Shown: positions 21,969 to 52,344 of the stretch, one piece after another
Numbering within the stretch: the stretch's first letter is position 1
How the letters are laid out: every line of letters starts with the position of its first letter
Assembly: GCA_027340875.1 (NCBI GenBank)
Contig: DAIENX010000091.1
Coordinates: 1-59,291, forward strand
Length of the DNA stretch: 59,291 bases
Direction: 5' to 3'
Origin: Elusimicrobiota bacterium
GTDB lineage: Bacteria; Elusimicrobiota; Elusimicrobia; Elusimicrobiales; UBA9959
The notes under the pieces: generated by a model
Databases searched by the model: none
Told to the model about the DNA's origin: nothing
Seen by the model: the letters and a program-made list of their open reading frames with translations, nothing else
Translations under genes and position numbers: made by a program

Positions 21969-21995
21969 ACCAACCCTCCTTATACCGCTAGTTCG

Positions 21996-24661: not shown

Positions 24662-24665
24662 ACGG

Positions 24666-25772: not shown

Positions 25773-25775
25773 GGG

Positions 25776-27017
25776 TCAGAACCTTACGGTATATTTCTCC
25801 CTGGGGTACAGCCCCCTGTCTGGCAGGCTGATGACCGGGAAATAGAGCACTATGGCGCGATAGAGCAGCATCAGGATGCAGGCGAAGCCTACCGTGACGG
25901 AGATCTCCCCTATGGACGGGAAGTAGCTCTTGAAAGAATACGGGGGGGTGTAAGCCACGAGGAAGTTGTTGATGCGGTTCAGCAGCACGCCGAGCACCAC
26001 CAGCAGCGAGGCCGTGAACAGCAGCGGGGGCGACTTCAGCACCTCGCGCGACAGGAACATCCTCAGCGGGACGACCACGCCTATCAGCACCTCCGCCATG
26101 AACATCACGCTCGCGGTGTTCAGCGTGGCCAGGTAGACGAAGGTCTCGCGGACGAACATGTCGCCGAGCTTGAAGCCCAGGTAGACGGCCAGCAGCGGGG
26201 CCGTGAGCCTGCCGAGCTTCGAGAGTATCTCCATTTCCGGCTTCAGGCCGAAGGAGCGGGCGGCGAGTATGGATTCCACGATCACCATAGGCAGGCCCAC
26301 CGAGATCGCCGACAGCAGGAACAGCAGCGGCAGTATCGGGGTCTGCCAGAGCGGGTGCATCTTCGGCCCGGCTATTACCATCAGAGTCCCCAGCGAGGAC
26401 TGGTGCAGCGTGGAGAGCACTATGCCGGAGATGATGAAGAAGAACATCGTGGCGGAGAGGCCGCGGTCCAGGAAGCCCAGCAGCTTCTCGGCCGCGGCGT
26501 TGAACCCGGCCAGCGGCCCGGGCAGGTTCACCCTTCCGAGGAACCTTTCCACGACCACCGGCAGGAACTCCACGTAGAGCACGTTGAGGTAGATGGTCAC
26601 GCAGATGCCCACCTCGAACAGCGCGGAGCTGCCGTTCCACATGAAGATCGGGTGCCAGATGTAGTAGTAGCGGCCGATGTCTATCGCGACGCCGATGGCC
26701 ACGAAGGTGTAGCCGAGCATCGCGGTCAGCAGCGCCGGCCTCACTATGGCGTGGTACTCCTCGCGGTTAAGCACGTGGCCCAGCGCCGCGGTGACGAAGC
26801 CGCCGGCCGCGAGCGCCACTCCGCCGGCGACGTCTATGGCTATCCAGATGCCCCACGGGTGCTGGTTGTCCAGGTTCGTCACGCCGCCTATGCCGAAGAG
26901 AAAGCGCCCCGCGAGGAACACCAGGCCGTTGGCGGCCAGGACCAGCAGCGCGATAACGCCGGGGGTCAGGAATTTCCTGTCCAGAGGGGCGGGCTTCATG
27001 TAGCGGGTCATGGTCAT
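25776..27017 (-). CDS. NrfD/HybB/HmcC family quinone-interacting membrane subunit
   Basis: TNL...PWG.WIA.DV, ALAAGGF, DIGR, SALFEV, STLHQSSLG and HPLW motifs. Confidence 0.9.
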   Translation of the reverse strand: MTMTRYMKPAPLDRKFLTPGVIALLVLAANGLVFLAGRFLFGIGGVTNLDNQHPWGIWIAIDVAGGVALAAGGFVTAALGHVLNREEYHAIVRPALLTAMLGYTFVAIGVAIDIGRYYYIWHPIFMWNGSSALFEVGICVTIYLNVLYVEFLPVVVERFLGRVNLPGPLAGFNAAAEKLLGFLDRGLSATMFFFIISGIVLSTLHQSSLGTLMVIAGPKMHPLWQTPILPLLFLLSAISVGLPMVIVESILAARSFGLKPEMEILSKLGRLTAPLLAVYLGFKLGDMFVRETFVYLATLNTASVMFMAEVLIGVVVPLRMFLSREVLKSPPLLFTASLLVVLGVLLNRINNFLVAYTPPYSFKSYFPSIGEISVTVGFACILMLLYRAIVLYFPVISLPDRGLYPREKYTVRF

Positions 27018-27916
27018 TCCTCGCCGTCAGGCCCCTGCCGGTTCTTGGAGATCCACATCAGCAGGCCGAGCAGCGCGTACAGCGAGACCGGCGGCACGAA
27101 ATAGGCGAAAATGCCGTGCTGGATGCTCTCGGAAACTCCGGGGGCCGGGTTGGGGCCCAGCTTGGGGAACTGGAGCTTCTCGAAGTCGACGCCGGCCAGG
27201 TACAGCCAGTCGGTGCCTCCCACCTCGTATTCGCCGAGCACGTGCTGAACGTACCGGTCCGGGTCGCGCCTGATCCGGTCTTTGGCCACGCGCACCAGCT
27301 CTTCCCTGGGCCCGAAGGTGAGCGCTTCCACCGGGCAGATGTCCACGCAGGCCGGCAGCTTGCCTTCCGTCCTGCGGGTTACGCACAGGTCGCATTTCCG
27401 GACCTGCGGCTGTATTGCCTTGTGGTATTCGAACGACGGGACCTGGAACGGGCAGGCCACCATGCAGTAGCGGCAGCCTATGCACTTCTTCGTATCCCAG
27501 ACCACCGCGCCGTCATCCCTCTTCGTCAGCGCCCCCACGATGCAGGCCGAGACGCAGGCGGGGTGGTCGCAGTGCATGCACTGCACCTTTACGGAGTAAG
27601 GCGGTTTGGAAGGGTCCGGGTTGTCGTAGCGGTTGACCACCGTGAGCGCCGCGTCGTCCGGGCGGCGCATCTGCCGGAAGACGGAGGCGTCCTGGTAGGT
27701 TTCCAGCGGCCGGGTAGGGATGCCGTGGGCGCTCTTGCAGCCCCATTCGCAGCTCCGGCAGCCGATGCAGACGGTGGTGTCGACCAGCACCCCGATCCGG
27801 TCCGGGGAGAGCGCTGCCTCCTCGCCGGCCTCGGCGGAGGCCGACGTCAGGCCTGTCAGTCCCGCGCCGATGACGGCGCATCTCTTCAGGAACGCGCGGC
27901 GGGTAATATCGGGCAT
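27014..27916 (-). CDS. HybA/HmcB-like Tat-exported 4Fe-4S protein with C-terminal TM anchor
   Basis: Twin-arginine TRRAFLK; CIGCRSCE..C, CMHCDHPACVSAC, CIGCRYCMVACP and KCDLC..PACVDICP. Confidence 0.92.
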   Translation of the reverse strand: MPDITRRAFLKRCAVIGAGLTGLTSASAEAGEEAALSPDRIGVLVDTTVCIGCRSCEWGCKSAHGIPTRPLETYQDASVFRQMRRPDDAALTVVNRYDNPDPSKPPYSVKVQCMHCDHPACVSACIVGALTKRDDGAVVWDTKKCIGCRYCMVACPFQVPSFEYHKAIQPQVRKCDLCVTRRTEGKLPACVDICPVEALTFGPREELVRVAKDRIRRDPDRYVQHVLGEYEVGGTDWLYLAGVDFEKLQFPKLGPNPAPGVSESIQHGIFAYFVPPVSLYALLGLLMWISKNRQGPDGEE

Positions 27917-29418: not shown

Positions 29419-29450
29419 AAAAAAACCTCCACCATATATCAAGGTAGAGG
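29419..29450 (-). terminator. Riboswitch expression-platform terminator
   Basis: Minus strand CCTCTACC-ttgatatat-GGTGGAGG-T7, overlapping the 3' end of the aptamer. Confidence 0.85.
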
Positions 29451-29523
29451 TCATCAGCCCGGGCTCCCGGGCGGTTCCCCCGGTTAGCGTAGAAAGCTCT
29501 CCGGGGCGGCGGACATCATCGCC
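29444..29523 (-). ncRNA. Fluoride (crcB-motif) riboswitch
   Basis: Minus strand GGCGATGATGTCCGCC...AACCGCCCGGG-AG-CCCGGGCTGATGACCTCTAC fits the crcB consensus, followed by a terminator and an antiporter gene. Confidence 0.85.
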
Positions 29524-29597
29524 GTTATATAAGGATATTATAGCAGTTCCGGCCTGTCGCGGGCGCTGGCGGCCGGTAAATTGATATTATTTCCGGC

Positions 29598-34691: not shown

Positions 34692-36320
34692 ATGGAAAGG
34701 AACTCTTCCGGTCCTCTGCGCTGGGTAATGCTCGGCCTGTTCATCCTCCTGATGGGCGGCTTCCTTTCCGCCGTCCATCTAAGCAGCCTCTCGCGCCAGC
34801 AGGGGATGATGAACGGCGGCTTCGGCTATCGCGGCACCGCGCCGGAAGCCTCGTCCGGAGCGCAGGCCACCGCCGGCGGCGTGGCGTCATCCTCCTCTTC
34901 TCCGGAACGCTCCAGGTCCTTCTCCGAAAAAGTATCGAACCTTGCCGACAGCCTGCTCTCCTGGCTCGGCGGCAAGCCGGGGCCCGGCGGCTCCGCCGCT
35001 GTCGCCCAGCGCCCGCCGGACGATGAGGGCGGCTCCGCTTCCGGAGAACGCGATCCTTTCGAGGAGTTCTACAGCAAATATTACGGCCATTCCTCGGCCG
35101 CGTCCTCGCCTCCCAGCGGCGGCTCATCCGCTTTCGGCGGCTTCTCCTCTGTTTCGGGGGCTTCCGCCTCCGCTCCTGCCGCGGCCTCCGCTCAGCATGC
35201 GTCCGCCGGCCCCGTCGCCGCGGCGGCTCCTGCACCGCAGGCGCAGCCGGGTAAGCCGCTTTTCGGAGGGCCGCTCGGTCGTTCCGGCGGCCGGCCTTCT
35301 CCGCTCCAGGCCTCTCTTCCTTCCGGCGGTCTTCCCAGGCCGCCGGCTTCGGTCTCGGGTTCCGGCGGCCTGCCTGGTCTTCCGTCCGAACAGCGCGACG
35401 GCCGCGGTTCCAGCGGCGGGTCCGTTTCGGGGATGCGCGGCAGCGTGGCCGCCGGGGACCTGAACGACGCTTCTTCCGCGCTGCGCGGCGGCGCGCAGAG
35501 CGAATATTCGGGCAAAATGTCGCAGGGCGCGGCCGCCGTGGCTTCCGGTTCCGGCGGTTCCGGCGGCGGCGGTTCCTCGGCTCCGGCGGCTGCCTCCGTG
35601 GGCGGCGGCTCTTCCGGAGACGGCTCCTCCTCCGGAACGCCTACTCCGTCCGCGGCTTCCGGCGGCGACAAGAAGCCCGGGGACGACAAGAAGTCCGGGG
35701 ACCAGAAGTCCTCTCCGGCCGGGGATGATTTCGGCGGATATAACGTCTATTCCACCGGGGCAGGGCCCGAGCAGAACTTCATGAAGTCCGTGGCCGTGGA
35801 GCGGCGCAACGGCGACGAGGCGAAATACCTCGCGGAGGCGGACTATAAAGGCATGCCCGAGAGGTCCCTGCTGAAGTCCGGCGGCATGCCGGCGGAGTAC
35901 GACGACAAGGACCAGAAGGCTTCCGACCAGCCGGCAGCCGACCGCGCAGGCGACATGAAGGACCTCTCTTTCGAGAAGAAGCGCGTTCCGCGCCCTCCCG
36001 ACCCCGAGAACTTCTCCGAGCTGACCGGCGAGCGAAAAGCCCAGTTGAAGCAGAGGATACACCGCTTCATCAGGCGCTTCGAGAACAAGTACGGGCCGAT
36101 GTCGGATATCTTCTTCACGCAGTGCCTGAACGATAAGGAGCTTTGCGAGAAGCATTCCCTGAAGGAAGGCTATCTCACCGAGGCCACGTCCACCGACGCC
36201 AAGCTGGTCCTGGGGCTCAAGTACTCCAGGAAGCGCTGGCGCCCCTACACCGTTTCCGTCACGCTGCCCGGCACGATGCTGGCGCAGGAGGAAGACGGCG
36301 ACGCTCCGCAGTCCCGATAG
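34692..36320 (+). CDS. Membrane-anchored Gly/Ser/Ala-rich hypothetical protein
   Basis: N-terminal TM (WVMLGLFILLMGGFL), long low-complexity linker, charged C-terminal domain. Confidence 0.75.
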   Translation: MERNSSGPLRWVMLGLFILLMGGFLSAVHLSSLSRQQGMMNGGFGYRGTAPEASSGAQATAGGVASSSSSPERSRSFSEKVSNLADSLLSWLGGKPGPGGSAAVAQRPPDDEGGSASGERDPFEEFYSKYYGHSSAASSPPSGGSSAFGGFSSVSGASASAPAAASAQHASAGPVAAAAPAPQAQPGKPLFGGPLGRSGGRPSPLQASLPSGGLPRPPASVSGSGGLPGLPSEQRDGRGSSGGSVSGMRGSVAAGDLNDASSALRGGAQSEYSGKMSQGAAAVASGSGGSGGGGSSAPAAASVGGGSSGDGSSSGTPTPSAASGGDKKPGDDKKSGDQKSSPAGDDFGGYNVYSTGAGPEQNFMKSVAVERRNGDEAKYLAEADYKGMPERSLLKSGGMPAEYDDKDQKASDQPAADRAGDMKDLSFEKKRVPRPPDPENFSELTGERKAQLKQRIHRFIRRFENKYGPMSDIFFTQCLNDKELCEKHSLKEGYLTEATSTDAKLVLGLKYSRKRWRPYTVSVTLPGTMLAQEEDGDAPQSR

Positions 36321-39388: not shown

Positions 39389-40609
39389 ATGACGTACAAC
39401 TCTAACAGCAGGAAAAAGACCCTACTGATATCCATGCTGGCCTTCCTGCTGGTCGGCGGGTCGATATTCCTTTTCTTCGTGGTGCAGGGCGCCGATGAAC
39501 TGACCGGCAAGAACAAGAACAAGAGCTTCTCGTACGGCGACGCCGCCAGGGAGGGCGTCTCCTCCTTCTTCAAGTCGGTGGGGATATTGCCGGAAGAGGA
39601 GAAGAAGCTTTCCGACTCCGCGGTCAGCCGGCTGGATACGCGCGGTCTGCCGCTCAGCGATCTGGGCCTCGGCGGCGCAAAAACGGATATTTCCGACTGG
39701 ATGGCCAAGGACGGTTCCAGGACCTCGGCCTCGGCTTCCGCTTCGCGTCCGTCCGCCCCCGCCAATATCGCGAAAATGGCCCAGAAGCCGCTGTCCGGCG
39801 TCGGCGGCTCCGGCGGCGCCGGTTCCAAGTCCTCCGCGGGGCTGTCGCGCTTCGGCGAAGGTTCCGGGTCCGGAGAAGCCTCCGTGTCCGCTTCCGCGGG
39901 CGCAGGCAAGGCCGGTACTACGGACAAGGGCACCATGGCATCTCTCAAGAACGCCCGGGCGCTGCTGAGCCAGGGTCTGCAGTCCGGCTCGGCCATGACT
40001 GCCAAGGACAAATGGAACCAGAGCTTCGGCGCCGGCGGGGCGAAGACCGCCAATGGCGGGCAGCTGGCCTACAACAAGTCAGGTATGGTAAGCCTGGACA
40101 AGATAAAGAGCGGCGAGATCGAGAGCCTGAAGATGGACAAGGCCAACACCTTCGGCGCTCCCGACGTGCCCAAGATGGAGAAGGCCGCCGGCGCCAACGA
40201 GATAGACCAGGATACGAAGAAGAAAGAGGACATGAAGGCCGAGATGAACAAGCAGATAATGGAGGGCGCCATCAAATCCATGGGCGACGCCATGGAAAAA
40301 TCGATGAAGGATAGGCCTGGCGATCCTGCGGCCGATAGGGCCGATTCGTCCAGGCCTCCCGACGCCGTCATGAACGCCTCGGAGAATGTCACCTGCGAAA
40401 AGGGCTGTACCACCGGCTCGGGGGCGAAATACACGGATGCTGCCAGGGTCTTCACCCAGAACGGGGACGGCAACTGGGAATGCGACATCAACGGCACCCA
40501 GGTGGATCCCGGACCGCCGGAGACCACGATCTCTTATACTGATACCATCACTTACAAGCCAGACGGCACGGTGATGGACATTACGTCGATCGAGAATCCG
40601 GTGAAGTGA
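39389..40609 (+). CDS. Membrane-anchored Gly/Ser-rich array protein 1
   Basis: Basic N-terminus plus TM; low-complexity linker; small Cys-containing C-terminal domain; GGGAG RBS. Confidence 0.8.
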   Translation: MTYNSNSRKKTLLISMLAFLLVGGSIFLFFVVQGADELTGKNKNKSFSYGDAAREGVSSFFKSVGILPEEEKKLSDSAVSRLDTRGLPLSDLGLGGAKTDISDWMAKDGSRTSASASASRPSAPANIAKMAQKPLSGVGGSGGAGSKSSAGLSRFGEGSGSGEASVSASAGAGKAGTTDKGTMASLKNARALLSQGLQSGSAMTAKDKWNQSFGAGGAKTANGGQLAYNKSGMVSLDKIKSGEIESLKMDKANTFGAPDVPKMEKAAGANEIDQDTKKKEDMKAEMNKQIMEGAIKSMGDAMEKSMKDRPGDPAADRADSSRPPDAVMNASENVTCEKGCTTGSGAKYTDAARVFTQNGDGNWECDINGTQVDPGPPETTISYTDTITYKPDGTVMDITSIENPVK

Positions 40610-40632
40610 TAGAACGGGCCTGGGGGCGGCCC

Positions 40633-40661
40633 TTGACAAGTCAAATTCCGTCTGCTATAAC
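40633..40661 (+). promoter_or_regulatory. Putative sigma70 promoter
   Basis: TTGACA-N17-TATAAC with TG extension. Confidence 0.7.
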
Positions 40662-40760
40662 ATCATTGCGTCAACTTTGACCTGAACGCCCGAGGGGGCT
40701 GTGTCAGGAAAAGTTTAAAGTTATTTTTGCGGTCTCAGGCGGCAATAAAAGGGCGGGGTT

Positions 40761-41696
40761 ATGATAAACTTCCAGGCCAAGCAGAACAAGACCAAGCAGT
40801 ACGCCATAGGCGCTTCTGTGGCCGTGGTGATGATAGCCATGTGGATCTCGCTGCCGCTGATGAGCAACTCCTCGCTGGATTCTTCTGTTACTGCCGGAAA
40901 CCCCTTCAAGTCCAAGGTGGCCGACATCGGCCTGCTGGGCAGCGATATCTCTTCCGAGGCCGGCGCCCCCGGTTCCCCGCTTAGCGGCGAGATGATATAC
41001 AACCCCGCCACCTCCGGGGAGAACATAGCCTCTTCCCTTTTCCAGTCCGGTCCCGGCGGCGATGAGCCCACCGACGGCTCCGCGGCTTCTTCGGCTTCCG
41101 GCGTTTCCGCCTCGGCGGGGGTTTCCGCCCCGGCCCCCGGCGGCTCGGCTTCCGCCGGCGCCCCCGGCCCGGCCGGCAAGCTGCGGGCCGCCGCCTCCAT
41201 AACGGCGGGCAACTCCAATTCCATGACGGCGGGCGGCCTGCACAGCAAGTTCTTCGGCTCCGGCAACAATAAGGCGGAGTTCGCGCCCGTGGCCCCAGCC
41301 GACATGAAGAAGCCGCCTGTGGTCGACAAGAAGAATTCGCTCGCTTCCGTCCTGAACGACAGCTCCAAGAAGAGCGAGCTGGCCGCCAAGATGCCCTCCA
41401 TGGACGAGGCCAGGGGCGGCGCCAGCGCGGCTTTCGGTTCTGGCGGTACCGGAGCCAAGAGCATGGACCTGAACGGCGCCGCCGAGCAGGCGGCCGTTAT
41501 GTCCGGCCTGAAGATGGGGGAGGCGGCCCAGGACCTCAAGAGGAACGATCCCAACCTCAGCAAGAGCAAGGTGACACCTCCTACCCCTAAGGACGTCACC
41601 GATAAAGACGAGGAAATGAAGCAGCAGATGAAGATGATGATAATACAGATGGTCCTTAAAATGGTCCTCGGCGCTGTTTTCGGGGCAGTGGCGTAA
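40761..41696 (+). CDS. Membrane-anchored Gly/Ser-rich array protein 2
   Basis: N-terminal TM, Ser/Ala/Gly linker, LKRNDPNL..KDV and a Met-rich hydrophobic C-terminal helix. Confidence 0.82.
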   Translation: MINFQAKQNKTKQYAIGASVAVVMIAMWISLPLMSNSSLDSSVTAGNPFKSKVADIGLLGSDISSEAGAPGSPLSGEMIYNPATSGENIASSLFQSGPGGDEPTDGSAASSASGVSASAGVSAPAPGGSASAGAPGPAGKLRAAASITAGNSNSMTAGGLHSKFFGSGNNKAEFAPVAPADMKKPPVVDKKNSLASVLNDSSKKSELAAKMPSMDEARGGASAAFGSGGTGAKSMDLNGAAEQAAVMSGLKMGEAAQDLKRNDPNLSKSKVTPPTPKDVTDKDEEMKQQMKMMIIQMVLKMVLGAVFGAVA

Positions 41697-41721
41697 GTAG
41701 ATACTGGATTCTGGAGGAGTT

Positions 41722-43206
41722 ATGAACGACGATAACAAGAAGAAAGAGAAAAAGGGCGGGTTCCTCTCGTCTCTTTCCAACCTCTTCGGCGGCGGCGGCT
41801 CATCGGCGATGGGCGGCGCTTCCTCCGGCCTGGGCTCTGCCGGCGGACTCGGCGGGCTTTTCGCCACCAAGGCCGGAATAGTAGGCATGGTGCTGGGCGG
41901 AGCGACGTTGGCCGCCGGTGTCGGCGTTGTGTACAACTTCATCGGCCCCTCCTCCAAGCCAGTGTACAACCCCGACCTTTTCCAGAACAGCTACTACGAG
42001 GAAGAGGCCTCCAAGGCCGGCGAGCAGCGGGCCATGTCCCGCGACGCCTCGGCCGCGGCCTCGTCCACCCTGGACATGTTCCGCGAGCAGGCCAAGAAGG
42101 ACGGGCTTTCGCTGGGTAGCGAGGGCGGCGGCTCGTCCGGGGGCTCTTCGGACGGCTCCGCTCCGCAGGACGCCTCCGCTGACGCTTCGGCCGCGGCGCC
42201 TGATGCCGCGGGCGCTGCGGGCGGCGCCGACGGTGGCGTCGGTGCTGCCGGAGCTGGCGGCCCTAAGCTGCAGAAGCATGCCGGCTTCGGCGGCGGTTCC
42301 GGCGGCGGCTCCGGAACCTCTATACCGAGGATGCAGACCGGCGGCGGACTCAGCGGCGGCATAGGCGCCAAGTTCCAGCCCGTCTACAGGCCTCCGGTGC
42401 AGGCCAACGGCGGCAATCTCTCCGGTATGACCGCTTCCGCGGCCAGGCTGAAGAACGCTCCCAAGTACTCGGTCCCCAACGTCAACAGGAAGGGCGCGTA
42501 CGGCCAGGCCAAGTTCGCCAATAAGATGGGTTCAAAGGCCGCCTTCTCGGCCGACGCGGCGGGCGCCAGGACCAGCGCCGAGACCGCCTTCTCCGGCGAG
42601 ACCAGCGGCAGCGGCGACGTAGGCACCCCAGGCACCGGTGCGGGCCTCGGCGGAGCCGGCGTTACGGACGGGGCCGCGCTCAAGGGGAACGACCCCAGCC
42701 TTAACTCCAACGAGTCCACTCCTCCCAAGGTTCCGGAACATAAGGACGTGGACCCCTGGCAGGAATATGAAGACATGGCCATGGACAGCATGATGTGGGC
42801 TGCCGGTCTTATCCTCATCACCAAGCTGCTCGGGAAATTGGCTAAAACGGTCCCGTTCGTCTACTATCTGGCCGTTGCTACCGCTTTAGCGGCCATCTTC
42901 TACGCCTTGAAGGTAGTCTATGCCGGCTACAAGATGATGACGGAGTTCGGCCAGAAGATGATGGGCGGAATATATATGGCTGTCGGTCTGATGCTTGTTT
43001 ACCAGGCCTGGGAGGCCCTGTGCGGCCTGGAGCAGGGGGCGAGCGATGCCGACACGAAGAGCCTGAACGGAGAGAAGTACAATGCTGACAATCCGGCCAA
43101 GGCCGGCACTACCGGGAAAGTCGATGGCACGACATATACTGCGGACGGGAAGGGTGGCTGGACCACCAAGCCCATGGGCGACTATAGCATTGGGAAACTG
43201 TGGTAA
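41722..43206 (+). CDS. Membrane-anchored Gly/Ser-rich array protein 3
   Basis: KKKEKKGG, TM, STLDMFRE, KGAYGQAK, LKGNDPSL and KDVDPW, then about 3 hydrophobic helices; GGAGG RBS. Confidence 0.85.
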   Translation: MNDDNKKKEKKGGFLSSLSNLFGGGGSSAMGGASSGLGSAGGLGGLFATKAGIVGMVLGGATLAAGVGVVYNFIGPSSKPVYNPDLFQNSYYEEEASKAGEQRAMSRDASAAASSTLDMFREQAKKDGLSLGSEGGGSSGGSSDGSAPQDASADASAAAPDAAGAAGGADGGVGAAGAGGPKLQKHAGFGGGSGGGSGTSIPRMQTGGGLSGGIGAKFQPVYRPPVQANGGNLSGMTASAARLKNAPKYSVPNVNRKGAYGQAKFANKMGSKAAFSADAAGARTSAETAFSGETSGSGDVGTPGTGAGLGGAGVTDGAALKGNDPSLNSNESTPPKVPEHKDVDPWQEYEDMAMDSMMWAAGLILITKLLGKLAKTVPFVYYLAVATALAAIFYALKVVYAGYKMMTEFGQKMMGGIYMAVGLMLVYQAWEALCGLEQGASDADTKSLNGEKYNADNPAKAGTTGKVDGTTYTADGKGGWTTKPMGDYSIGKLW

Positions 43207-43235
43207 GGATATAAGAGGGGCTTTCGGGAGGCGTT

Positions 43236-44744
43236 ATGAGCGAGAATCTGCCTGAAATAGGTTTCAAGGAAAAGAAAGAGAAGAAGCGCGGCATTGGCGG
43301 CTGGCTCCGTCAGAGGCTGGGCTTCGGCTCCCGCGGCGGCGCGATGGGCGAGGCGGGGATCAATCCGTCGGCGATGAACGCCGCCAAGTTCGGCCGCGCC
43401 GCCTTCGGCGCCGGCAAGCTCGGGGCTTCTTCCGCCGGCGGCTTCGCCGGTCTGCTGGCCGGCAAGGCAGGCATGCTGATCACCGCGGCCCTGGTGGCCG
43501 TGGCCGGCGGCATGTACGTGGCCCGCAACTCTCCCACCGCTCCCAGTACCGGCTCCTCCGCCTTCAGCTCCGGCCAGTCCAAGGACAACTATGTCCCCGC
43601 TATACTGAGGAACCAGGCCGCCAACCAGGGCTCCTCGCTGGACATGTTCAAGGAGACCAACAAGGGCGCGGTCTCAATGGAAGAGGCCCCGGCCAAGCCT
43701 GCGGGGCCCCCCAAGGACGCCGCTCCCAAGGACGCCTCCGGGGAGGAACCCCAGACCGCCGAGCCGGCTCCCCCCGGCGGGGATAACATGGCCCAGGACA
43801 TGATGGCCAAGCTGCAGGGCGGCAACATGGCCTCGCTGACCAGCCAGCTGGGCGGCGGCTCCAACAACATGTCCAACTTCGGCGGCTTCTCGAACAAGTA
43901 CGGCCAGGGCTCTATGGGCCCCAAGACCGGCTTTACTTCCGGCATCGGCGCCGGCTTCTCCTCCATGCCCAAGTTCGACCAGCGCAAGAGCAAGATGCTG
44001 GCCATGAAGGGCGGCGCCCGCCCCGTGTTCGGCGGCGCCAAGGCCGGCAGCAAAGGCACCATAGGCAAGGGAGCTTTTAATCAGGCCAAGGGAATGCGGG
44101 CGATACAGAAGTCCTATACCGGTAACAGCATAGACGGCGCCCGCTCCACGCAGGACAAGGCCTGGGAGGGGACTACCGGGGAAGGCGACGCTTCGGGCGG
44201 CGCCGGCTTGAGCGACGGCGGCGCCGGCATAGTCACCTCGCCCTCGCTGGACAACGCGGACGGCATGCACGGCGGCGGCGCTCTCGGCAACGGCACGGAC
44301 CCGGGGACCCCTACCACTCCGGACGTCCCCAAGGATGTCAGCCCGTGGGCCGATCTGCTGGCACAGTCCATGCAGTCCCTGCTGATGGCGGCCCTGCTGG
44401 CCTATATAGGCGGCAAGCTCTGTAAGATCGGCCTCGACGGCATGAAGAAGTCGAGCTTCTGGCCCTTCATCGGCTACCTGATCGTCTACATCATCGGCGC
44501 CGTCATGTGCCTCTATGCGCTCAAACTGAGCGTAGACGCTCTTAATAACGGCATGTCGCTGATAAACGATTATGGCCAGAAGCTGCTGGGCACGGCGTAC
44601 GTGATAGGCGGCGTCATGGGCATTATCAATTCGATAATGGGCTTGATGGGCCAGACGCAGGGCGTGGCCGGCTTCACGATGGGCTGGATGAGCGCCGTCA
44701 TGGCCATGATAGGCGCGGTGGGAGGCATGATGGGCGGCAAATAA
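43236..44744 (+). CDS. Membrane-anchored Gly/Ser-rich array protein 4
   Basis: KEKKEKKRG, TM, SSLDMFKE, KGAFNQAK and KDVSPW, then about 4 hydrophobic helices; GGAGG RBS. Confidence 0.85.
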   Translation: MSENLPEIGFKEKKEKKRGIGGWLRQRLGFGSRGGAMGEAGINPSAMNAAKFGRAAFGAGKLGASSAGGFAGLLAGKAGMLITAALVAVAGGMYVARNSPTAPSTGSSAFSSGQSKDNYVPAILRNQAANQGSSLDMFKETNKGAVSMEEAPAKPAGPPKDAAPKDASGEEPQTAEPAPPGGDNMAQDMMAKLQGGNMASLTSQLGGGSNNMSNFGGFSNKYGQGSMGPKTGFTSGIGAGFSSMPKFDQRKSKMLAMKGGARPVFGGAKAGSKGTIGKGAFNQAKGMRAIQKSYTGNSIDGARSTQDKAWEGTTGEGDASGGAGLSDGGAGIVTSPSLDNADGMHGGGALGNGTDPGTPTTPDVPKDVSPWADLLAQSMQSLLMAALLAYIGGKLCKIGLDGMKKSSFWPFIGYLIVYIIGAVMCLYALKLSVDALNNGMSLINDYGQKLLGTAYVIGGVMGIINSIMGLMGQTQGVAGFTMGWMSAVMAMIGAVGGMMGGK

Positions 44745-44863
44745 GCTCCGGGACGTACGGAGGCCGTCGCGGACCGGCGGCCCCGGATATGCCGCTGAAG
44801 TTTTTGGTAAGGGTGTCTAGGATATTCTATTTCCATGGGCCGGTCAGGCCATATGGAGGTTAT

Positions 44864-46390
44864 ATGGGTAGCAAGTTCATATAGAAACACAAACGCAAGT
44901 CGGTACTGGCGGCGCTGCTGTTCATTTTCCAGGGCAAGGCCAAGTACATCACCATACTGCTGACCGTCACCGTGTTTTCCATCCCCTTCGTGATCTCCGG
45001 AGAGACCTTCGACCGGATGGTGACCTTCGCTCCCGTGGCCTCCGCGCTCCGGGCCCTGGGCATGGACAGCGTGGTCTCGTCCCTGAACCCCAAATACTCC
45101 AACGACCTTCTGAAGGCCGCGCTGAACAAGGCGGCCGAGGACAGCAAGCAGGATTCTTTCTGGCAGAAATTCCTCAAAAGCATGAACGCCTCCCTGCCTC
45201 CGGGCGGAGGCCCCTCCTCCATAGCCATGGTGAAGGGCGGGGGGGACGACCTGTTCGGCCCCCCTGAGGTGAAGGACGCCAAGGGTGAGAAGGCCAGGGG
45301 CCCGGGCGAGGTCAAGGGCGCCGTTAACGAGGAGGAGCGCGAGCGCGGCGATACCGGCGACGGCGTGGACCTGCAGGGGATGCTGGCCGGCAGTGCCGAC
45401 GGCATGTCTGGCCTTTATGATTCCATGGGCCAGAACCTGGCGGCCAGCTTCTCCGGCGGCTCCGGCATGAGCGCCGGCCCCTACATGAACCGCACTATGT
45501 TCACCAGCCGCAACGGCGCGGACGCCGGCGGCGGCGCGGCCATCTACGACAAGGCCGTTAAGCACTCCTCCGTCGGAGAGGTCCCCGTCCCGAACGCCGT
45601 GGGCAAGCCCCGCTCCAAGAAGATGGGGCGCGTCTCCGGCTTCGCCTGGAAGAACGTCGGCTATAACCGCAACCAGAGCGCGGCGCTCACCAAGATCGGC
45701 TCCAAGCGGCCCATGTTCCAGCTGGCCGAAACCTTCACTATGACCGGCGCCGCGGCGAAATCGCATGATTCCGCCTACGAGTACCAGAAATCTTACGTCG
45801 GCAGCACCTACGACGGTAACGATACCGGCGCCGACGCCATGGAAACGGACGCCGACTCGCCTACCGTGCCTCCGGACGCCGGGTTCACCGACGGCCTGAT
45901 GCTGGGGGCCGGCGACCTGCAGAAGCAGGCGGATCAGTGCTCGGCAGCGGAGGGCACCAACGGCGCCAAGATGTCAGAGGACGGCGACAAGATGTCCAAG
46001 ATCAAGGACAGCATGGGCAGCCCGCCTTCGTGCTGCAGCGGCGGCGTGGGCGCCTGGAACGCCAAGGTGGACCAGCTCGTCAGCCTCTGCCACGACTATA
46101 ACGCCAACGACGCCATCCTGGCTGGCAAATGCCAGACCAGCACCAAGCCGCAGAACTGCGGGTCTTACGCCGGCATGCACATAAATCCGTGCTCATGGTG
46201 GTCATGTTTCCTGGCCATAATCCTGATGATCATCCTGGGCGGCATCTTCGGCGTGTTCGGCTCGATAGCCGTGGCCGCCGTGATCGGCGGCTCTTCAATG
46301 GGACTTTTCGGAGATAAGATGAACAGTTTCGTGGAGAACATGATCGGTTATATCGCTTCTGGAGGCAAGAGCGATCAGGGCGGCCAGTGA
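44864..46390 (+). pseudogene. Array protein 5 with an in-frame TAG at codon 7
   Basis: GGAGG RBS then ATG 44864: MGSKFI-TAG-KHKRKSVLAALLFIF, in frame with ORF 44972-46390; Cys-rich region and hydrophobic C-terminal hairpin. May be an intact gene with a sequence error. Confidence 0.72.
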
Positions 46391-46465
46391 GGCTAGGCCC
46401 GGCGCCGGAGGCGCGGCAGTTCTCCGGTGGGGAACACAGATCTTAAGCCCGCGGTAAGAGCCAGT

Positions 46466-46546
46466 CCGGAATAAGGTTCCGGTGTCGCAACTGAGCTTGG
46501 CTGCGAGCGACCGTCGAGGAGTATGGTGCGTGGAACTTTATTCCGG
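46466..46546. repeat. Intergenic inverted-repeat element
   Basis: CCGGAATAAGGTTCC and GGAACTTTATTCCGG (14/15 inverted match) flank about 50 bp; followed by hairpin CCGCC-CGAAA-GGCGG. Confidence 0.55.
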
Positions 46547-46746
46547 GACCGCCCGAAAGGCGGACGGCTTTGCCGGGGGTTTTTTTGGGCCCCGCCGGAG
46601 GGGCCAAAGGGCCCAGCAGTATAGGGGACCATTGACACTTGGCCCGGGACGGAGTTTAAGGTAGAGTATAGTCGGAGAAATATGCCGGGGCCCGAGCCCC
46701 ATATATCAGTAGGCGGAATTACAAACCAGGTATTCGGAGGCAGTAT

Positions 46747-49700
46747 ATGAGCTTCTACAATAAGGACGAAAAAAAGGCTGGCGGTCCGGCGTTGCCGGGG
46801 TCGCCGTTCAAGAAAGCTTCCGCCTTCGGCAAGACGCCGATGTTCTCCCGCGCCGCGGGCGGCTTGATCGACAGGCTCAAGAACCTCTCCAAGAGGGACA
46901 TGGCCTTCGTCGGCATTGGCCTCAGCGTGCTCGTGATGGCGCCCGTCGCCGAATACATGATGTCGCAGCCGGTGCAGGACCCGATGCTGACCGCCAGCGG
47001 CTTCGGCAGCCGCGAGGGTTCCGCCAACGGCCTCTACGAGCCCGGCATCAACGGGCTGAGCACCGGCTCGCCCGACGGCGCCGGCGAGGTCATAACCCCT
47101 CTCAGCTCGCGCGACCCGGCCTCCCTGATACTCGGCGCCGAGCCGGCCCAGGCGCCGGTCCCGTCGGCCGCCCCGGCCGCCCCGCCCAGCGGCAGCTGGC
47201 GCGACGCTATGGCCGATTCCGGCCGCGCCGCCTTCAGCGCCGCCGCCAAGTCCGCCGGCGCGCCTACCCCGATCAACAGGATGCAGGGCATGCTGCGCAC
47301 CGTCTCCTCGTTCACTGACGGCGGCGGCAGCAGCAGCCGCACCACCGGCACGCTCGGCGGCGGCAACATAATCGAAAAGGCCAAGTCCGCCTCCTCCAAG
47401 GCCGCCGCCCGCTCCATGGTGGGCCCGGTAGCTATGGCCGGCTACAAGGGCGTGGCCTCCAATACCCCGAACAGCGCCTCCAAGGGCGCGTTCGAGAAGC
47501 TCCGCTCCGCTGCCGACAAGTCCGCGAGCAACTTCTCCGGCGGCTCCGCGATGAACTCGCTGGACAAGGCCGCGGCCGACGCCGTGGAGATAGGCAAGGG
47601 CGCGGGCGGGATAGGCGCCCTGGGCAACGGCGATGAAATAAAGGGCGGCAAGGATTACGACAACAAGTACACCCACCAGCGCTCCGGCGAGTCCCTCGCC
47701 GAGATGGCGCAGAAGCAGCGCCTGAACAAGGCGCTCGAGTGGGAGTTCTTCAAGAAGTACGAGATCCCCAAGCAGATCATCAACGCCGTGGTGGGCGCCA
47801 TAGCCAAGGAACTGGGCGACGCCGTGGGCGGCGCGGTGCACGGCGTGCTGAACCCCAGCGGCCCGGCGGCCCCGAAGCTCTACTGCTGGAAGAGGGAGGC
47901 GACTGGCTGGACCAATACGCATCTGCTGAAGTCCGATTGTTTCGACAAGGACGGGAAACTTTCCGCAGCCTGCTCGGACTGCCACTTCCTGACCGCTGAC
48001 TGCAATCCCGGCACGAACGGGGAGTGCTCCGGCGGCGGGACTCCTCCCCCTGCCGGCGGCGGTCAGCAGGGCGGCGCTCATGGCGACCCCTACCATTCCC
48101 CGGCCCCGACCTGGCCCACTGAGGATATCTCCAAATTCGACGGCTATCTGAAACAGTTCAGGCTGGATATCAAGGCTGCGGCCGACAAGCACAACCGCCC
48201 CGGAGAGTTCACCGAGGCCGGTTACGCCCTCAGTAAGGAATTCAATGACATGACCGGGCGGAGTTCCAAGGACAATTCCTTCGCAGTGGTCCTGAATAAC
48301 CTGCAGAAAAAAGCCGGTGAGTTCGATAAAGCGCAGGGGCTCTACGCAGGGGAAGTGGACTCGGCTTCCTCCTACCGGGACCAGGTGAAGCAGAGCAATT
48401 CGGCCTTGAGGGAAACGATACAGAAAAAGATCGACAGCCCCGAAGAGCTGGCAAAGATAGCCGCCCGCATGAATACGGGCAATGGCAAAGACGCCACTAT
48501 CCCTCAAGGTAAGGCTGTCGAGACCAAGGGCGCCGACCTCAGCGGTCCTACGCAGGCCCTGACGAAGCTCCGCGACGAGCTGGATGATAACGCCAAGGCT
48601 ATGGATATATTCAAGCCTAAGCTGGAGTTCCTGGACCGTTCCAAGGCGTTCTTCGCCGACCAGGCCAAGCAGATGTCGGCCGCTGTTGGAGAACTGCAGA
48701 CCGGTAACGGCAAGTTCGAATCGGAACTCTCCGGAGGCCCGGTCCCCGGCGCCGAAGGCGGTCCGCTATCGATATTCAAAACCTATAATGACGAGTTCAG
48801 CAAGCCGGACTCGAAATTCAAGCCCACCGAAGAGGACCTGAAGAAGCTGGCCAACGCCTTCAACACCCTCACCGGCTTCCCGGTGGAGGTGGACGGCGCC
48901 GCTCCCGCGGATCAGAAAACAGAGGAAACCATGACGGGGCGGCTGCTCGTGATGCGCGGAGCCGATTCCGAAGCCTATTACAAGAAGTCCGCTATCGACG
49001 ACACCAAGTTCAGGGACGAGAAGAGCGACCTGTCGGAGGCGGCCGTCTGGCCTCCGGTCAGCGTCAAGAAGAAGTACTTCCTGAACAAGATGGAAGGCGA
49101 ACCGACGCTGGCGCCGCAGCTGACGCAAGAGCGCAAGGTAACGCCGGTGCTGAACATCCGCATCGCCGATGAACTGACGGACGAAGTGGAGGCGATGAAG
49201 AACCAGATCAAGGAGCTAAAGGAGCAGGACATCCATGGCGCGGAGAACAAGGTCGCGGATGTAAAGAAGAGGCTGGATGCCCTCACCGGCGAGGGGACTC
49301 AGCCTGCCAACAATCCGCCGACCAACAATCCGCCGACTAACAACCCGCCGACGAATAATCCGCCGGTCGACAACGGCAACGGGAATAACGCCGCGGGCGC
49401 CGGCAATACCGCCATAACCAAGGCCGACACTGTGCTGCAGTCCGCCGATCCGATGATCAGCGACAACCAGCGCATCTATGATGGTCTTATCGCGAATAAG
49501 CACAACTGCACTTCCCAGGTCTGCAAGACCCAACTGGGTATTGCGGAAACTGAAATGGCGAACATGAAGAAGCTCCGGAGCGAGATAGCGACGCTGAGAG
49601 ATGATGCCGCCAAACCCGGCGCCGATATCGCCGCCATAGAGAGGCAGATAGGCGACAAACAGCGCGCGCTGGCCGCGTCAGACGAGAGGTTCGACGCCGC

Positions 49701-50547
49701 TGCCGCTATCGTGGCAAAACGCGAAGGCATTCCCAGCTCTACCGGCAACAACCATAACGGGAATAACGGGAATAATGGGAATAACGGCAACGGGCATAAC
49801 AACCCCCCGCCGCAGAACAACCATGCCAAGCCCACGCCTCCGCCCAACGTGATAAACACCGTGGTCCTCTATAACGGCCCGGCCACCATAAAGGCCTGGG
49901 ACAAGAAGGGCCGGGCCATCATGTACTGGGCCTGCCCCAACGGCAAGATCACGAAGAAGCCGTTCTATCAGAGGGCCGGTCAGTACGCCCTCAGCATGGT
50001 AGGCGGCCCGCTGGTCTCCACGTTCTACGGCGGCTACGTGCTCTTCGGCGACGACCCGCGCGTCGACAACAACTGCTCCACCGGCTGGAAGCAGCAGCAG
50101 GCCACCATCAAGGTGGAGGACTTCTCCCTGGCACCGCTCGGCAAGGTCCCCAGCCCCGCGCAGAGGAAACTCGGCAATATCCCCGTCTATCAGGAACAGG
50201 TTTGGATAGGGGATACCCAGAAGCTGCCGCAGACCGTCGGCACCGAGGCGCGCTGGGCCAGGGAGAACTGGAGCGTGCTGAAGCGCGGCCATTACGAGAT
50301 GGACATCGACGTGGTCTGCGAATGGAACGAGACCCGCAAGCGCTGGGAGTTCAAAGAGGTCGGCATGACCCACGGCACGGCTGAATCCTCCGACGCCTAC
50401 GGCGTGGAAGCCGGCGTGAGCGCCGGCATCAAGGTGGTGGACGTGGACGTCAAGGCCAGCTACCACCACGAGCAGCGGCAGTTCAACTACGGCGTGAAGA
50501 CGGACTACACCAGGCCGGCCGGCTTCGCCGGAATGGAATGTAAGTAA
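46747..50547 (+). CDS. Large (1266 aa) membrane-anchored array protein 6
   Basis: KDEKKAGG, TM, Gly/Ser linker, KGAFEKLRSA, Cys-rich module, helical regions, NNPPT and NNG repeats, beta-rich C-terminus; GGAGG RBS. Confidence 0.88.
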   Translation: MSFYNKDEKKAGGPALPGSPFKKASAFGKTPMFSRAAGGLIDRLKNLSKRDMAFVGIGLSVLVMAPVAEYMMSQPVQDPMLTASGFGSREGSANGLYEPGINGLSTGSPDGAGEVITPLSSRDPASLILGAEPAQAPVPSAAPAAPPSGSWRDAMADSGRAAFSAAAKSAGAPTPINRMQGMLRTVSSFTDGGGSSSRTTGTLGGGNIIEKAKSASSKAAARSMVGPVAMAGYKGVASNTPNSASKGAFEKLRSAADKSASNFSGGSAMNSLDKAAADAVEIGKGAGGIGALGNGDEIKGGKDYDNKYTHQRSGESLAEMAQKQRLNKALEWEFFKKYEIPKQIINAVVGAIAKELGDAVGGAVHGVLNPSGPAAPKLYCWKREATGWTNTHLLKSDCFDKDGKLSAACSDCHFLTADCNPGTNGECSGGGTPPPAGGGQQGGAHGDPYHSPAPTWPTEDISKFDGYLKQFRLDIKAAADKHNRPGEFTEAGYALSKEFNDMTGRSSKDNSFAVVLNNLQKKAGEFDKAQGLYAGEVDSASSYRDQVKQSNSALRETIQKKIDSPEELAKIAARMNTGNGKDATIPQGKAVETKGADLSGPTQALTKLRDELDDNAKAMDIFKPKLEFLDRSKAFFADQAKQMSAAVGELQTGNGKFESELSGGPVPGAEGGPLSIFKTYNDEFSKPDSKFKPTEEDLKKLANAFNTLTGFPVEVDGAAPADQKTEETMTGRLLVMRGADSEAYYKKSAIDDTKFRDEKSDLSEAAVWPPVSVKKKYFLNKMEGEPTLAPQLTQERKVTPVLNIRIADELTDEVEAMKNQIKELKEQDIHGAENKVADVKKRLDALTGEGTQPANNPPTNNPPTNNPPTNNPPVDNGNGNNAAGAGNTAITKADTVLQSADPMISDNQRIYDGLIANKHNCTSQVCKTQLGIAETEMANMKKLRSEIATLRDDAAKPGADIAAIERQIGDKQRALAASDERFDAAAAIVAKREGIPSSTGNNHNGNNGNNGNNGNGHNNPPPQNNHAKPTPPPNVINTVVLYNGPATIKAWDKKGRAIMYWACPNGKITKKPFYQRAGQYALSMVGGPLVSTFYGGYVLFGDDPRVDNNCSTGWKQQQATIKVEDFSLAPLGKVPSPAQRKLGNIPVYQEQVWIGDTQKLPQTVGTEARWARENWSVLKRGHYEMDIDVVCEWNETRKRWEFKEVGMTHGTAESSDAYGVEAGVSAGIKVVDVDVKASYHHEQRQFNYGVKTDYTRPAGFAGMECK
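49309..49368 (+). repeat. Coding tandem repeat, 4 x 15 bp (NNPPT)
   Basis: AAYAAYCCGCCGACN units; last unit ends in GTC. Confidence 0.9.
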
Positions 50548-50740: not shown

Positions 50741-51313
50741 ATGAATAAACGAACGACACTGTCCGCGGGGCTGATAGTGGTATTCCTGTTCTCGTACGCT
50801 AAAGCCGCTGATACGAACGCATCCGCTAAGCCGGCTGAACAGGCCGGAACTTCCAAGTCTGAAGCCACGGAAATCCCTTCCCGCGTGGACCTGATGAAAG
50901 GAACGGATACATCCCCTGAAGATGTGCAGAGATGTAAGGACAGGTGTGACAGGCACTATTCTTCTTGTACGGACAGTGTCCGTGATAAGTTCCTTAAAGC
51001 AGAGGATGATTGTAGGTCTGATTACGACAGTTCTTATGATAAATGTGAAGATACCCGTCAGGATGATATGGGTACTTGCCGCGACAAATTAGATAAGTGC
51101 GAGAGTAACTGCGACAAAGACGATGTGAAATGCCGCAACCAGTGCACCGATGATGACGCCGACTGTAAAAGTGATGCATATCGTACCTTTGATTCCTGCA
51201 AGAGTGACGCTCAAAGCGACAAGAAGAGCTGCTTGGATGATGCCAAGGATTCCAAGGATGATGGGGATTCTGACTGCAAACGGGATAAGGATGATTGTGA
51301 GGCCGATTGCTGA
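50741..51313 (+). CDS. Secreted Asp/Cys-rich protein with 16 Cys in mirror-symmetric spacing
   Basis: Signal peptide (..SYAKA); visibly lower GC than its flanks. Confidence 0.82.
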   Translation: MNKRTTLSAGLIVVFLFSYAKAADTNASAKPAEQAGTSKSEATEIPSRVDLMKGTDTSPEDVQRCKDRCDRHYSSCTDSVRDKFLKAEDDCRSDYDSSYDKCEDTRQDDMGTCRDKLDKCESNCDKDDVKCRNQCTDDDADCKSDAYRTFDSCKSDAQSDKKSCLDDAKDSKDDGDSDCKRDKDDCEADC

Positions 51314-51462: not shown

Positions 51463-52344
51463 ATGAAGAAACTGTTTATCACGATCGCTATGATATCGGC
51501 CCTCGGGCTGAACGCGGCGGCCTGGTTCGACGGCGGCCTCAGCGCCACCACCGGCCCCAGCGGCTACAGCAGGACGGACGCCTACATAACCATTGGCGGG
51601 GAGTCCATCTGGGTGAAACCCGCCCTGATGCGGCAGGATTCCGACACCCTGAGCAAGGCTTTCAACACCTACTCGGTGCGCGTGGGCAAGGAGTCGGCGG
51701 TCTACACGGTGGCCGGCGAGGTCGGCACCACGCCCTCCACTAAGTACAGCTCCACCTCCAAGTATTCCAGCACCTTCTTCGGCGGCGACATCACCTTCTC
51801 GCTGACCCCCGGCAAGGGCGGCCACGGCCGCATGGCCGGTCCCAACGCCAGGGCCGCCTCCGGCGGCGGCGAGGGCGTGACCGGCGTGGACGTGGGCGCG
51901 GGCATCAAGCATACCGACCACAAGGTGGATTCCACCGTAGCTGCCTCCGACGGCAAGACCGGCCAGAACGAGCTCTCCATCTTCGCGGGCGCCAAGATCC
52001 TGATGGCCCGCCTGGGCGCCTCCTGGTCCGGCTTCTCCTACGGCAGCGAGAAGGCGATGGCGATGGTGGACCCGGTCTCCGGCCTGTCCTACGCCCTGCT
52101 CGGAGTGCTGCCCAAGTCCAGCGTGAACGTGCGCCTGGACATACCGGCCACCGTGCCGATGATAGCCCCGTACGTCACCTACACCACCACCAAGTACAAG
52201 GGCGGCGTGGACGACTCCAACGCCTACGCCTTCGGCGCCTACATCGACCTGAACATGATCGGCGCCAACGTGATGTACCAGATATTCGACAACGGCAGCC
52301 ATAAGAACAGCTACGTGACCCTGAACGCCGGCGTGAAGTTCTAA
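51463..52344 (+). CDS. Putative outer-membrane beta-barrel protein
   Basis: Signal peptide, alternating amphipathic strands and C-terminal YVTLNAGVKF signature. Confidence 0.78.
   Translation: MKKLFITIAMISALGLNAAAWFDGGLSATTGPSGYSRTDAYITIGGESIWVKPALMRQDSDTLSKAFNTYSVRVGKESAVYTVAGEVGTTPSTKYSSTSKYSSTFFGGDITFSLTPGKGGHGRMAGPNARAASGGGEGVTGVDVGAGIKHTDHKVDSTVAASDGKTGQNELSIFAGAKILMARLGASWSGFSYGSEKAMAMVDPVSGLSYALLGVLPKSSVNVRLDIPATVPMIAPYVTYTTTKYKGGVDDSNAYAFGAYIDLNMIGANVMYQIFDNGSHKNSYVTLNAGVKF

Follow-up and report, generated by a model that had tools for sequence, protein, structure and literature searches.

What do six neighbouring genes encode that share one layout and match no catalogued protein family? 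The genes, which we denote g1–g6, lie co-oriented at positions 39389..50547 (+ strand) of a 59,291-nucleotide stretch (contig DAIENX010000091.1, positions 1 to 59,291; assembly GCA_027340875.1) from an Elusimicrobiota bacterium; this whole stretch is referred to as the window. An earlier note had proposed that they encode paralogous subunits of a new trans-envelope or contact apparatus, tethered in the inner membrane and with tips able to insert into a second membrane. Here, we report that the array is a real, class-wide, uncharacterised protein superfamily that most probably serves an unusual Tad system as an accessory module. Homology among the six proteins, their conserved gene order, and their linkage and co-occurrence with the Tad locus are established here.

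The six open reading frames (ORFs), anchors, linkers and shared block were found as the earlier note had described them. Each protein begins with a basic N-terminal tail and a hydrophobic helix, followed by a linker (family median 140–230 residues, 38–52% Gly/Ser/Ala) that leads to the block. g1 (39389..40609; 406 amino acids; this and all array features below on the + strand) consists of a signal anchor (residues 12–33), a Gly/Ser linker, the block (residues 179–213, 39923..40027) and a variable C terminus. g2 (40761..41696; 311 amino acids) has a signal anchor, a linker, the block (residues 191–226, 41331..41438), an LKxNDP motif and a Met-rich, marginally hydrophobic C-terminal helix. g3 (41722..43206; 494 amino acids) features a Gly-rich N-terminal tail, a transmembrane helix at residues 50–71, a disordered linker, a helical hairpin at residues 260–290 within its block (42487..42597) and a confidently predicted hydrophobic three-helix bundle at residues 347–445. 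g4 (43236..44744; 502 amino acids; block 44064..44171) is a paralogue of g3 over its full length and has as many as four hydrophobic helices in its C-terminal part. g5 (44864..46390; 508 amino acids; block 45701..45817) combines an anchor, the longest linker, a hairpin and a long, Cys-containing helical hairpin with, in the window's family, a C-terminal transmembrane helix. g6 (46747..50547; 1,266 amino acids) has a conserved N-terminal region of 360 amino acids containing the anchor and the block (residues 245–281, 47479..47589), then a poorly conserved stalk with Asn/Pro linkers and, at about residues 1041–1266 (49867..50547), a swappable Cys-containing tip. The C-terminal hydrophobic helices attributed to four members belong to g2, g3, g4 and g5, with a polar tail following them in g3, and the motifs quoted for pairs of proteins are present (LDMFxE and KDVxPW in g3/g4, LKxNDPxL in g2/g3).

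Profile–profile comparisons indicate that the six proteins are one superfamily, linked mostly through the shared block. Using hhalign with class-wide alignments of 20–61 sequences each, we found that 8 of the 15 gene pairs, at E 1.3e-4 or better, join all six genes: g3–g4 (3.6e-49), g2–g3 (2.5e-10), g1–g2 (1.8e-8), g4–g5 (9e-8), g2–g6 (2.6e-6), g1–g6 (4.3e-6), g2–g4 (6.5e-6) and g3–g5 (1.3e-4). The remaining seven gave E 1e-3 or worse. Controls on seven of the eight linking pairs, all but g3–g4, separate signal from background, with scores of 44–82, whereas 15 block-shuffled alignments scored 25 or less and reversed ones 22 or less; the block is in register in six of the seven pairs, and the g2–g6 pair aligns upstream of it. 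These results bear out the proposed paralogy. With alignments of near relatives only, g3–g4 (E 2e-40) and g2–g3 (7e-6) are clear and g1–g6 is weak. The block by itself is also weak, with 7 of 15 block-against-block pairs at E < 1e-3. A hidden Markov model (HMM) of the pooled block, the search that the earlier note had proposed, found no held-out member among 721 ORFs; among 7,942 ORFs of the genome, its top matches were five of the six window proteins, a circular result, as those proteins were in its training set. Similarity from end to end is confined to g3 and g4. g1 occurs in the window's family, and its closest relatives are g2 and a seventh paralogue, g0, described below; in most other families g2 is the first gene of the array.

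None of the six proteins matched a Pfam, NCBIfam or PHROGs family over cut-off, in agreement with the earlier statement that no enzymatic domain can be recognised in them. In the ESM Atlas, g3 matched unnamed Elusimicrobiota clusters only, and residues 40–370 of g6 gave no usable match. Among the best 120–150 matches listed, those bearing taxon names are all Elusimicrobiota (10 of 150 representatives were looked up, 2 of them with a taxon), and no Omnitrophota homologue of the array is among the matches listed.

The order of the array is conserved. Related Elusimicrobia loci bearing g4 (n = 31) show the complete g1–g6 order in 22 cases; eight others keep the order as far as their contigs reach, and one has no g1 match. 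In most of the 31, a Mur-ligase and flavodiiron (fprA) gene pair flanks the array on one side and an outer-membrane-like gene on the other, with dnaX, recR and comEC beyond the latter. Across families the order g2, g3/g4, g5, g6 is fixed, with two to five g3/g4-type copies per locus. Among 142 genomes sampled from six families, with sizes from 1.2 Mb to 4.6 Mb, 137 have g6. In family f2, probably a gut lineage of fermenters, g6 is kept in 86 of 88 genomes, mostly of 1.2–2.2 Mb; there the separately aligned array genes match, by position, g2 (E 1.3e-6), g3/g4 (8.6e-6 and 4.1e-6) and g5 (5e-8), with reversed scores of at most 27, and f2 g6 aligns directly with window-type g6. Loss of the array in these small-genome relatives was considered and rejected: the first g6 profile matched 3 of 88 genomes and g4 alone 0 of 14, and because the broader g6 profile recovers 86, the apparent loss reflects an insensitive profile.

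The array is tied to a locus encoding a Tad (type IVc) pilus. In families f6 and f8 it lies directly behind a TadG-like gene, a TadE-like gene and an FtsH paralogue, and in four genomes of two families (G027, G096, G116 and G300) the run from the pilins to g6 is contiguous and almost wholly co-directional. The cluster reads PorV-like, two Flp, TadE, RcpC, secretin, TadZ–TadA fusion, TadB, TadC, a tetratricopeptide-repeat protein, sensor kinases and a regulator, (Flp), TadG-like, TadE-like, (FtsH paralogue) and the array, with the bracketed genes not always present. In f2 the array follows the pseudopilins with no FtsH paralogue between. This linkage is kept in f2 and f6/f8 despite divergence of the array proteins to about 20% identity. 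In the window's own genome (G000), contig C109 carries Flp, TadG-like, TadE-like and FtsH paralogue genes and then, directly, g0 (hhalign E 4.7e-8 to g1 and 4.9e-9 to g2), which also follows the Tad tail in three further loci (L173, L174 and L195); the remaining Tad core is on contigs C60 and C90. Behind g0 on C109 come an S41 protease gene and giant genes, ORFs of 2,100–4,000 amino acids that follow the Tad tail. The earlier note had remarked that no ATPase or secretin is present; this is true of the window, and other contigs of the genome have both.

Most parts of the locus are identified by family matches. Flp reaches 24.5 bits for PF04021 (cut-off 23.7) in L186:1308, the C109 copy falling below the cut-off. 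RcpC matches PF16976 with 57 bits and the secretin PF00263 with 141–146 bits; the secretin is only 240–260 amino acids long, one copy of 247 amino acids having its Pfam domain at residues 86–247. In L186 and the window's genome, the TadZ–TadA fusion (738–739 amino acids) joins a ParA-like N terminus to a PF00437 domain (214–217 bits), and its best NCBIfam match is the TadA family, under that family's cut-off. Two PF00482 genes in L186 and L195 correspond to TadB and TadC. The first TadE is over cut-off (37 bits), the TadE-like gene beside the array is under it (E 2e-4 to 6e-3), and the TadG-like gene matches PF13400 at E 0.013–0.25 in three of seven copies. The FtsH paralogue matches PF00004 and PF01434 over cut-off in five of five copies and retains an intact HEAGH motif in seven of seven; it has two membrane helices and no periplasmic domain, and is distinct from the genome's ordinary FtsH.

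Linkage and co-occurrence were counted across 301 genomes of the phylum: matches to the last TadE-like gene occur in 145, to g6 in 138 and to both in 137. Taking the best match per genome, both lie on one contig in 76 genomes, and in 72 of these g6 is at most 26 kb downstream of the TadE-like gene on the same strand; in 61 genomes they are on different contigs. Neither gene was found in family f15 (0 of 89) or the other small families sampled, though distant RcpC genes are common there. No array lies near four simpler Tad loci of other families, which gave no secretin match in the DNA covered.

On this evidence we consider it likely that g1–g6 serve the Tad machine in some way. They are probably a lineage-specific accessory module of the Elusimicrobia Tad pilus–secretin machine, not a free-standing apparatus. 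The earlier note had named a match to a known system such as Tad as grounds against a new apparatus, and the genetic tie to a Tad locus with ATPase and secretin goes part of the way there; the novelty of the parts stands, the six proteins being no known Tad components.

Several observations weigh against this assignment. All linked genomes belong to one clade and are therefore not independent, so the counts may reflect a single inherited arrangement. In the window's family the array sits elsewhere, between fprA and the outer-membrane-like gene before dnaX, and array and TadE are on different contigs in 21 of 21 genomes. In G092 and G289, g5 and g6 lie far apart and also far from Tad. G308 carries the Tad subtype described here together with the FtsH paralogue, with no detectable array within 40 kb. 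Family f9 has the pseudopilin in three of four genomes and no g6 match, its downstream genes matching g5 weakly (E 1e-3), and the FtsH paralogue was not found in five of five tested genomes, all of which carry g6.

Structure prediction, which covered g3 and g5, gives a first view of the proteins. The AlphaFold2 models are all-helical and of low overall confidence (predicted template modelling score 0.39 for both), with the linker mostly disordered. The block is a two-helix hairpin in each (predicted local distance difference test score, pLDDT, about 75–80 in g3 and 55–65 in g5). The confident parts are the hydrophobic three-helix bundle of g3 and the long helical hairpin of g5, which contains three invariant and two near-invariant Cys among 42 sequences. 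Fold searches with both models returned generic helical bundles or hairpins and no informative fold: the g3 model retrieved generic three-helix bundles, the best being plakin (Z 13.0, root-mean-square deviation 1.8, 96 aligned), and Foldseek gave it no match at E ≤ 0.001. A complex prediction of g3 (residues 252–446) with g4 (residues 272–480) scored 0.00 and counts neither way.

These models and the sequences support the predicted tethering in the inner membrane through anchors followed by long, disordered extracytoplasmic linkers. The idea of tips inserting into a second membrane is weakened. On a summed hydrophobicity scale, a crude measure and not a topology predictor, the first two C-terminal helices of g3/g4 score 0.1–1.2, as hydrophobic as the membrane helices of ComEC (−0.4 to 4.0), and the loop between them averages 2.2 Lys/Arg against 0.4 Asp/Glu in g3 (0.8 against 0.3 in g4); the Lys/Arg-rich g3 loop fits a return to the same inner membrane. 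The simplest reading is that g3/g4 would be polytopic inner-membrane proteins with a large periplasmic loop. The later g3/g4 helices (3–4), the g2 C terminus and the g6 anchor are marginally hydrophobic (2.6–4.9) and therefore leave room for the export of array proteins, a possibility weighed below.

The tip of g6 is variable. Compared with 30 orthologues, the window's g6 has a median identity of 68% over the first 360 residues, 11–14% over the middle and 4% over the last 226, a pattern that suggests diversifying pressure on the tip. The last 230 residues sort into several mutually unrelated groups, many of them ending close to a Cys; the window's type is common to three other loci, and tips are exchanged between close relatives. 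A PDB sequence search with the tip returned nothing significant. Its β-rich end resembled a pore-forming hairpin by eye only, a resemblance that no search supports.

How might such proteins serve a pilus? We picture the array as a periplasmic scaffold of the Tad machine that is anchored in the inner membrane, is held together by the hairpins and presents the swappable tip of g6, and we give this specific form about an even chance. Each protein would be anchored in the inner membrane with its N terminus inside, and its disordered 140–230-residue linker would reach into the periplasm and end in the small helical hairpin; g3, g4 and g5 would return to the inner membrane through their C-terminal helices, forming anchored loops. 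The basic N-terminal tails, the conserved g5 Cys and the Lys/Arg-rich loop in g3 support this topology. The hairpins may come together as a mixed collar or scaffold that surrounds the base of the pilus, which could replace the periplasmic domains missing from the 240–260-amino-acid secretin. Such a collar could position g6, whose long stalk would carry the exchangeable Cys-containing tip into contact with a surface, a host or another cell. The FtsH paralogue, whose gene separates the pseudopilins from the array, may turn subunits over from their cytoplasmic tails and would be dispensable in some lineages.

Tad pili are involved in adhesion and, in myxobacteria, in the killing of prey. An accessory module found throughout the class and fitted with exchangeable tips would offer a first way to study how these bacteria, most of them uncultured, make contact with surfaces, hosts or prey. 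Through the Tad link, what was an orphan cluster becomes a machine that can be tested, with the secretin, RcpC, the pseudopilins and the protease as its named partners. Array and Tad locus are also among the conserved envelope features of a large clade.

The array might instead be an independent envelope structure, such as a TolA/TonB-like inter-membrane tether or a polar or division scaffold, that simply happened to neighbour the Tad locus in the ancestor of the class. TolA and TonB have the same layout of anchor, disordered linker and small distal domain; in the window's family the array genes were relocated together, and in G092 and G289 they are scattered; and near-universal retention in the clade suits a housekeeping role. 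We nevertheless hold this explanation to be unlikely: g0 stayed in the Tad locus after the array had moved, Tad linkage has outlasted the divergence of the array proteins, the g6 tip is exchanged between close relatives, and none of the six proteins matches the TonB_C or TolA families of Pfam. The blast and HMM labels beside the array include no ExbBD/TolQR motor; no search was aimed at motor families.

Alternatively, the array proteins may be cargo: parked in the inner membrane, freed by the FtsH paralogue or the nearby S41 protease, and exported by the Tad pilus, which would recognise them by the hairpin, they would refold in the membrane of a target cell as a translocon or feeding conduit, with the g6 tip as a polymorphic effector or receptor-binding domain. 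This attaches the translocator idea of the earlier note to the Tad machine. The Gly/Ala-rich, marginally hydrophobic helices would suit it, as would the copy number of the g3/g4 type, the swapping of g6 tips, the large secreted-looking and giant genes behind the cluster, and an FtsH paralogue with an intact HEAGH motif and no periplasmic domain placed between pseudopilins and array; AAA+ proteases can process substrates partially at Gly/Ala-rich stretches. By analogy, the prey-killing Tad-like pilus of Myxococcus (PMC12075869, available sections) and the Omnitrophota rcpC/secretin loci ahead of giant genes (10.1101/2023.11.21.568195, accessible part) may point the same way. However, no class III prepilin motif was noticed by eye in the six N termini, the first two of the C-terminal helices in g3/g4 would be expected to halt transfer at the inner membrane, g6 persists without a detected FtsH paralogue in the five genomes tested, and it is retained in 86 of the 88 f2 genomes, which we take to be those of gut fermenters. 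We regard export of the array proteins as improbable.

A bolder form of the export model is a Tad-derived contact machine in which membrane-parked, largely unfolded subunits are released by a dedicated FtsH-type protease, exported through the minimal secretin on a pseudopilin tip, and assembled as a conduit in the membrane of another cell, with g6 as its polymorphic tip. The protease would degrade the tail and anchor of each subunit and slip on the Gly/Ser/Ala linker. We think this quite doubtful; if true, it would be a new secretion and contact system in a phylum with none described in the literature searched.

Very unlikely, finally, are individual adhesins of the surface or periplasm, each anchored in a membrane, that have an ancestral stalk module and pilus co-regulation in common and form no single complex: f9 members and g6 do carry large Cys-containing C-terminal domains behind the same layout, and g3/g4 alone are similar end to end, but g2–g4 have no candidate binding domain, and the fixed gene order across families, with g5–g6 spacers of 9–24 nucleotides in most f6/f8 loci, suggests a fixed stoichiometry.

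The accessory-module assignment can be set against known systems. The linked locus has the parts of Tad/type IVc systems by Pfam and NCBIfam (Flp, RcpC/CpaB, RcpA secretin, TadZ, TadA, TadB, TadC and TadD, together with TadE/G-type genes that are partly under cut-off), but none of g1–g6 is a catalogued Tad component, and the locus itself differs in its TadZ–TadA fusion, short secretin, N-terminally extended TadB, PorV-like gene, embedded two-component set and FtsH paralogue. The Kil system of Myxococcus resembles it, by description only, in having a Tad core with extra minor pilins, lineage-specific accessory genes and variable distal parts; in contrast, Kil tips are minor pilins and work with a needleless type III secretion system, according to the available portion of PMC12075869. 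FlhA/SctV (PF00771), of the type III export apparatus, was not found in G000, which is 92% complete. The Omnitrophota locus shares rcpC, secretin, ATPase, platform and class III-signal genes, whereas a paralogous Gly/Ser-rich array is not described in the part of 10.1101/2023.11.21.568195 available. Periplasm-spanning connectors (TolA/TonB, GspC, PilN/O/P, VirB10) likewise combine an inner-membrane anchor, a long flexible linker and a small distal module; here there is no family match, and six or seven paralogues stand in fixed order with extra C-terminal membrane helices. VirB6/TrbL arrays are also tandem polytopic inner-membrane paralogues with Gly/Ser/Ala-rich regions, but g1–g6 gave no TrbL or TrbI family match, and the VirB4 ATPase family was found in none of five genomes (92–100% complete). 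No S-layer family domain of Pfam was found in g1–g6.

Tad systems in Elusimicrobia have been mentioned before (PMC6668835, in the portion available), and the accessible part of PMC11257099 notes pilins only, in Endomicrobiaceae. The literature searched contains no paper on the array; that search did not extend to the E. minutum description and genome papers and their supplements, where protein-family tables may include these genes. PMC9476967 does not mention the cluster, and in the main text of 10.1101/765248 the words pili, pilin, Tad and secretion do not occur.

Within the window's array, the apparent absence of a g5 start is due to an in-frame TAG at codon 7 (44882–44884, + strand). This TAG is an assembly error, as the position is open in 32 of 32 orthologues and contigs from four of four runs of one study, possibly the source of the window's DNA, read G at 44882 at full depth; stop-codon recoding and a pseudogene were rejected on the same grounds. 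The g5–g6 spacer is mostly 300–400 nucleotides long in the window's family. In the window, 46445–46582 folds as a long hairpin that closes with a T run (−70 kcal/mol; z −3.7 relative to 200 two-base-block shuffles), and after it comes a conserved stretch resembling a promoter (TTGACA 46632–46637, TATAGT 46667–46672). The spacer has no Rfam match, and 31 spacers gave no consensus fold. In four loci (L041, L048, L061 and L068), a gene of 450 amino acids, B12-binding radical-SAM-like by eye, is inserted between g4 and g5.

The slot after g6 holds varying genes across loci. In the window it is occupied by a secreted-looking protein of 190 amino acids with 16 Cys (50741–51313, +), which was found in none of the related loci. 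A conserved gene that is outer-membrane-barrel-like by eye and lacks a family match (51466–52344, +) lies between array and dnaX in the window's family. Just upstream of the array in 13 distinct relatives is an anchored Gly/Ser-rich protein of 542 amino acids with a conserved C-terminal domain (window 34692–36320, +); despite its similar look, it could not be tied to the array family (best E 0.005).

The Tad loci show further features. The short secretin, TadZ–TadA fusion and N-terminally extended TadB mark a Tad subtype (L186:2877–5844; L143, L196). The FtsH paralogue at L142:11164–12837 (G000:C109) belongs to a form embedded in Tad loci that also occurs in G308. Downstream of the G308 Tad locus (L209:11366–15807) are two tandem paralogues of 740 amino acids with Gly-rich hydrophobic helices, which gave no array match (best E 0.016). 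G000 has ten matches to the type II/IV secretion ATPase family, and therefore several type IV filament systems besides Tad. Elsewhere in the window, genes for cytochrome c3, NrfD and ferredoxin precede those for a kinase and for two response regulators with fused glycine-cleavage H domains (20802–27916, −), and a fluoride riboswitch (29438–29532, −) lies upstream of a Na+/H+ exchanger-family gene.

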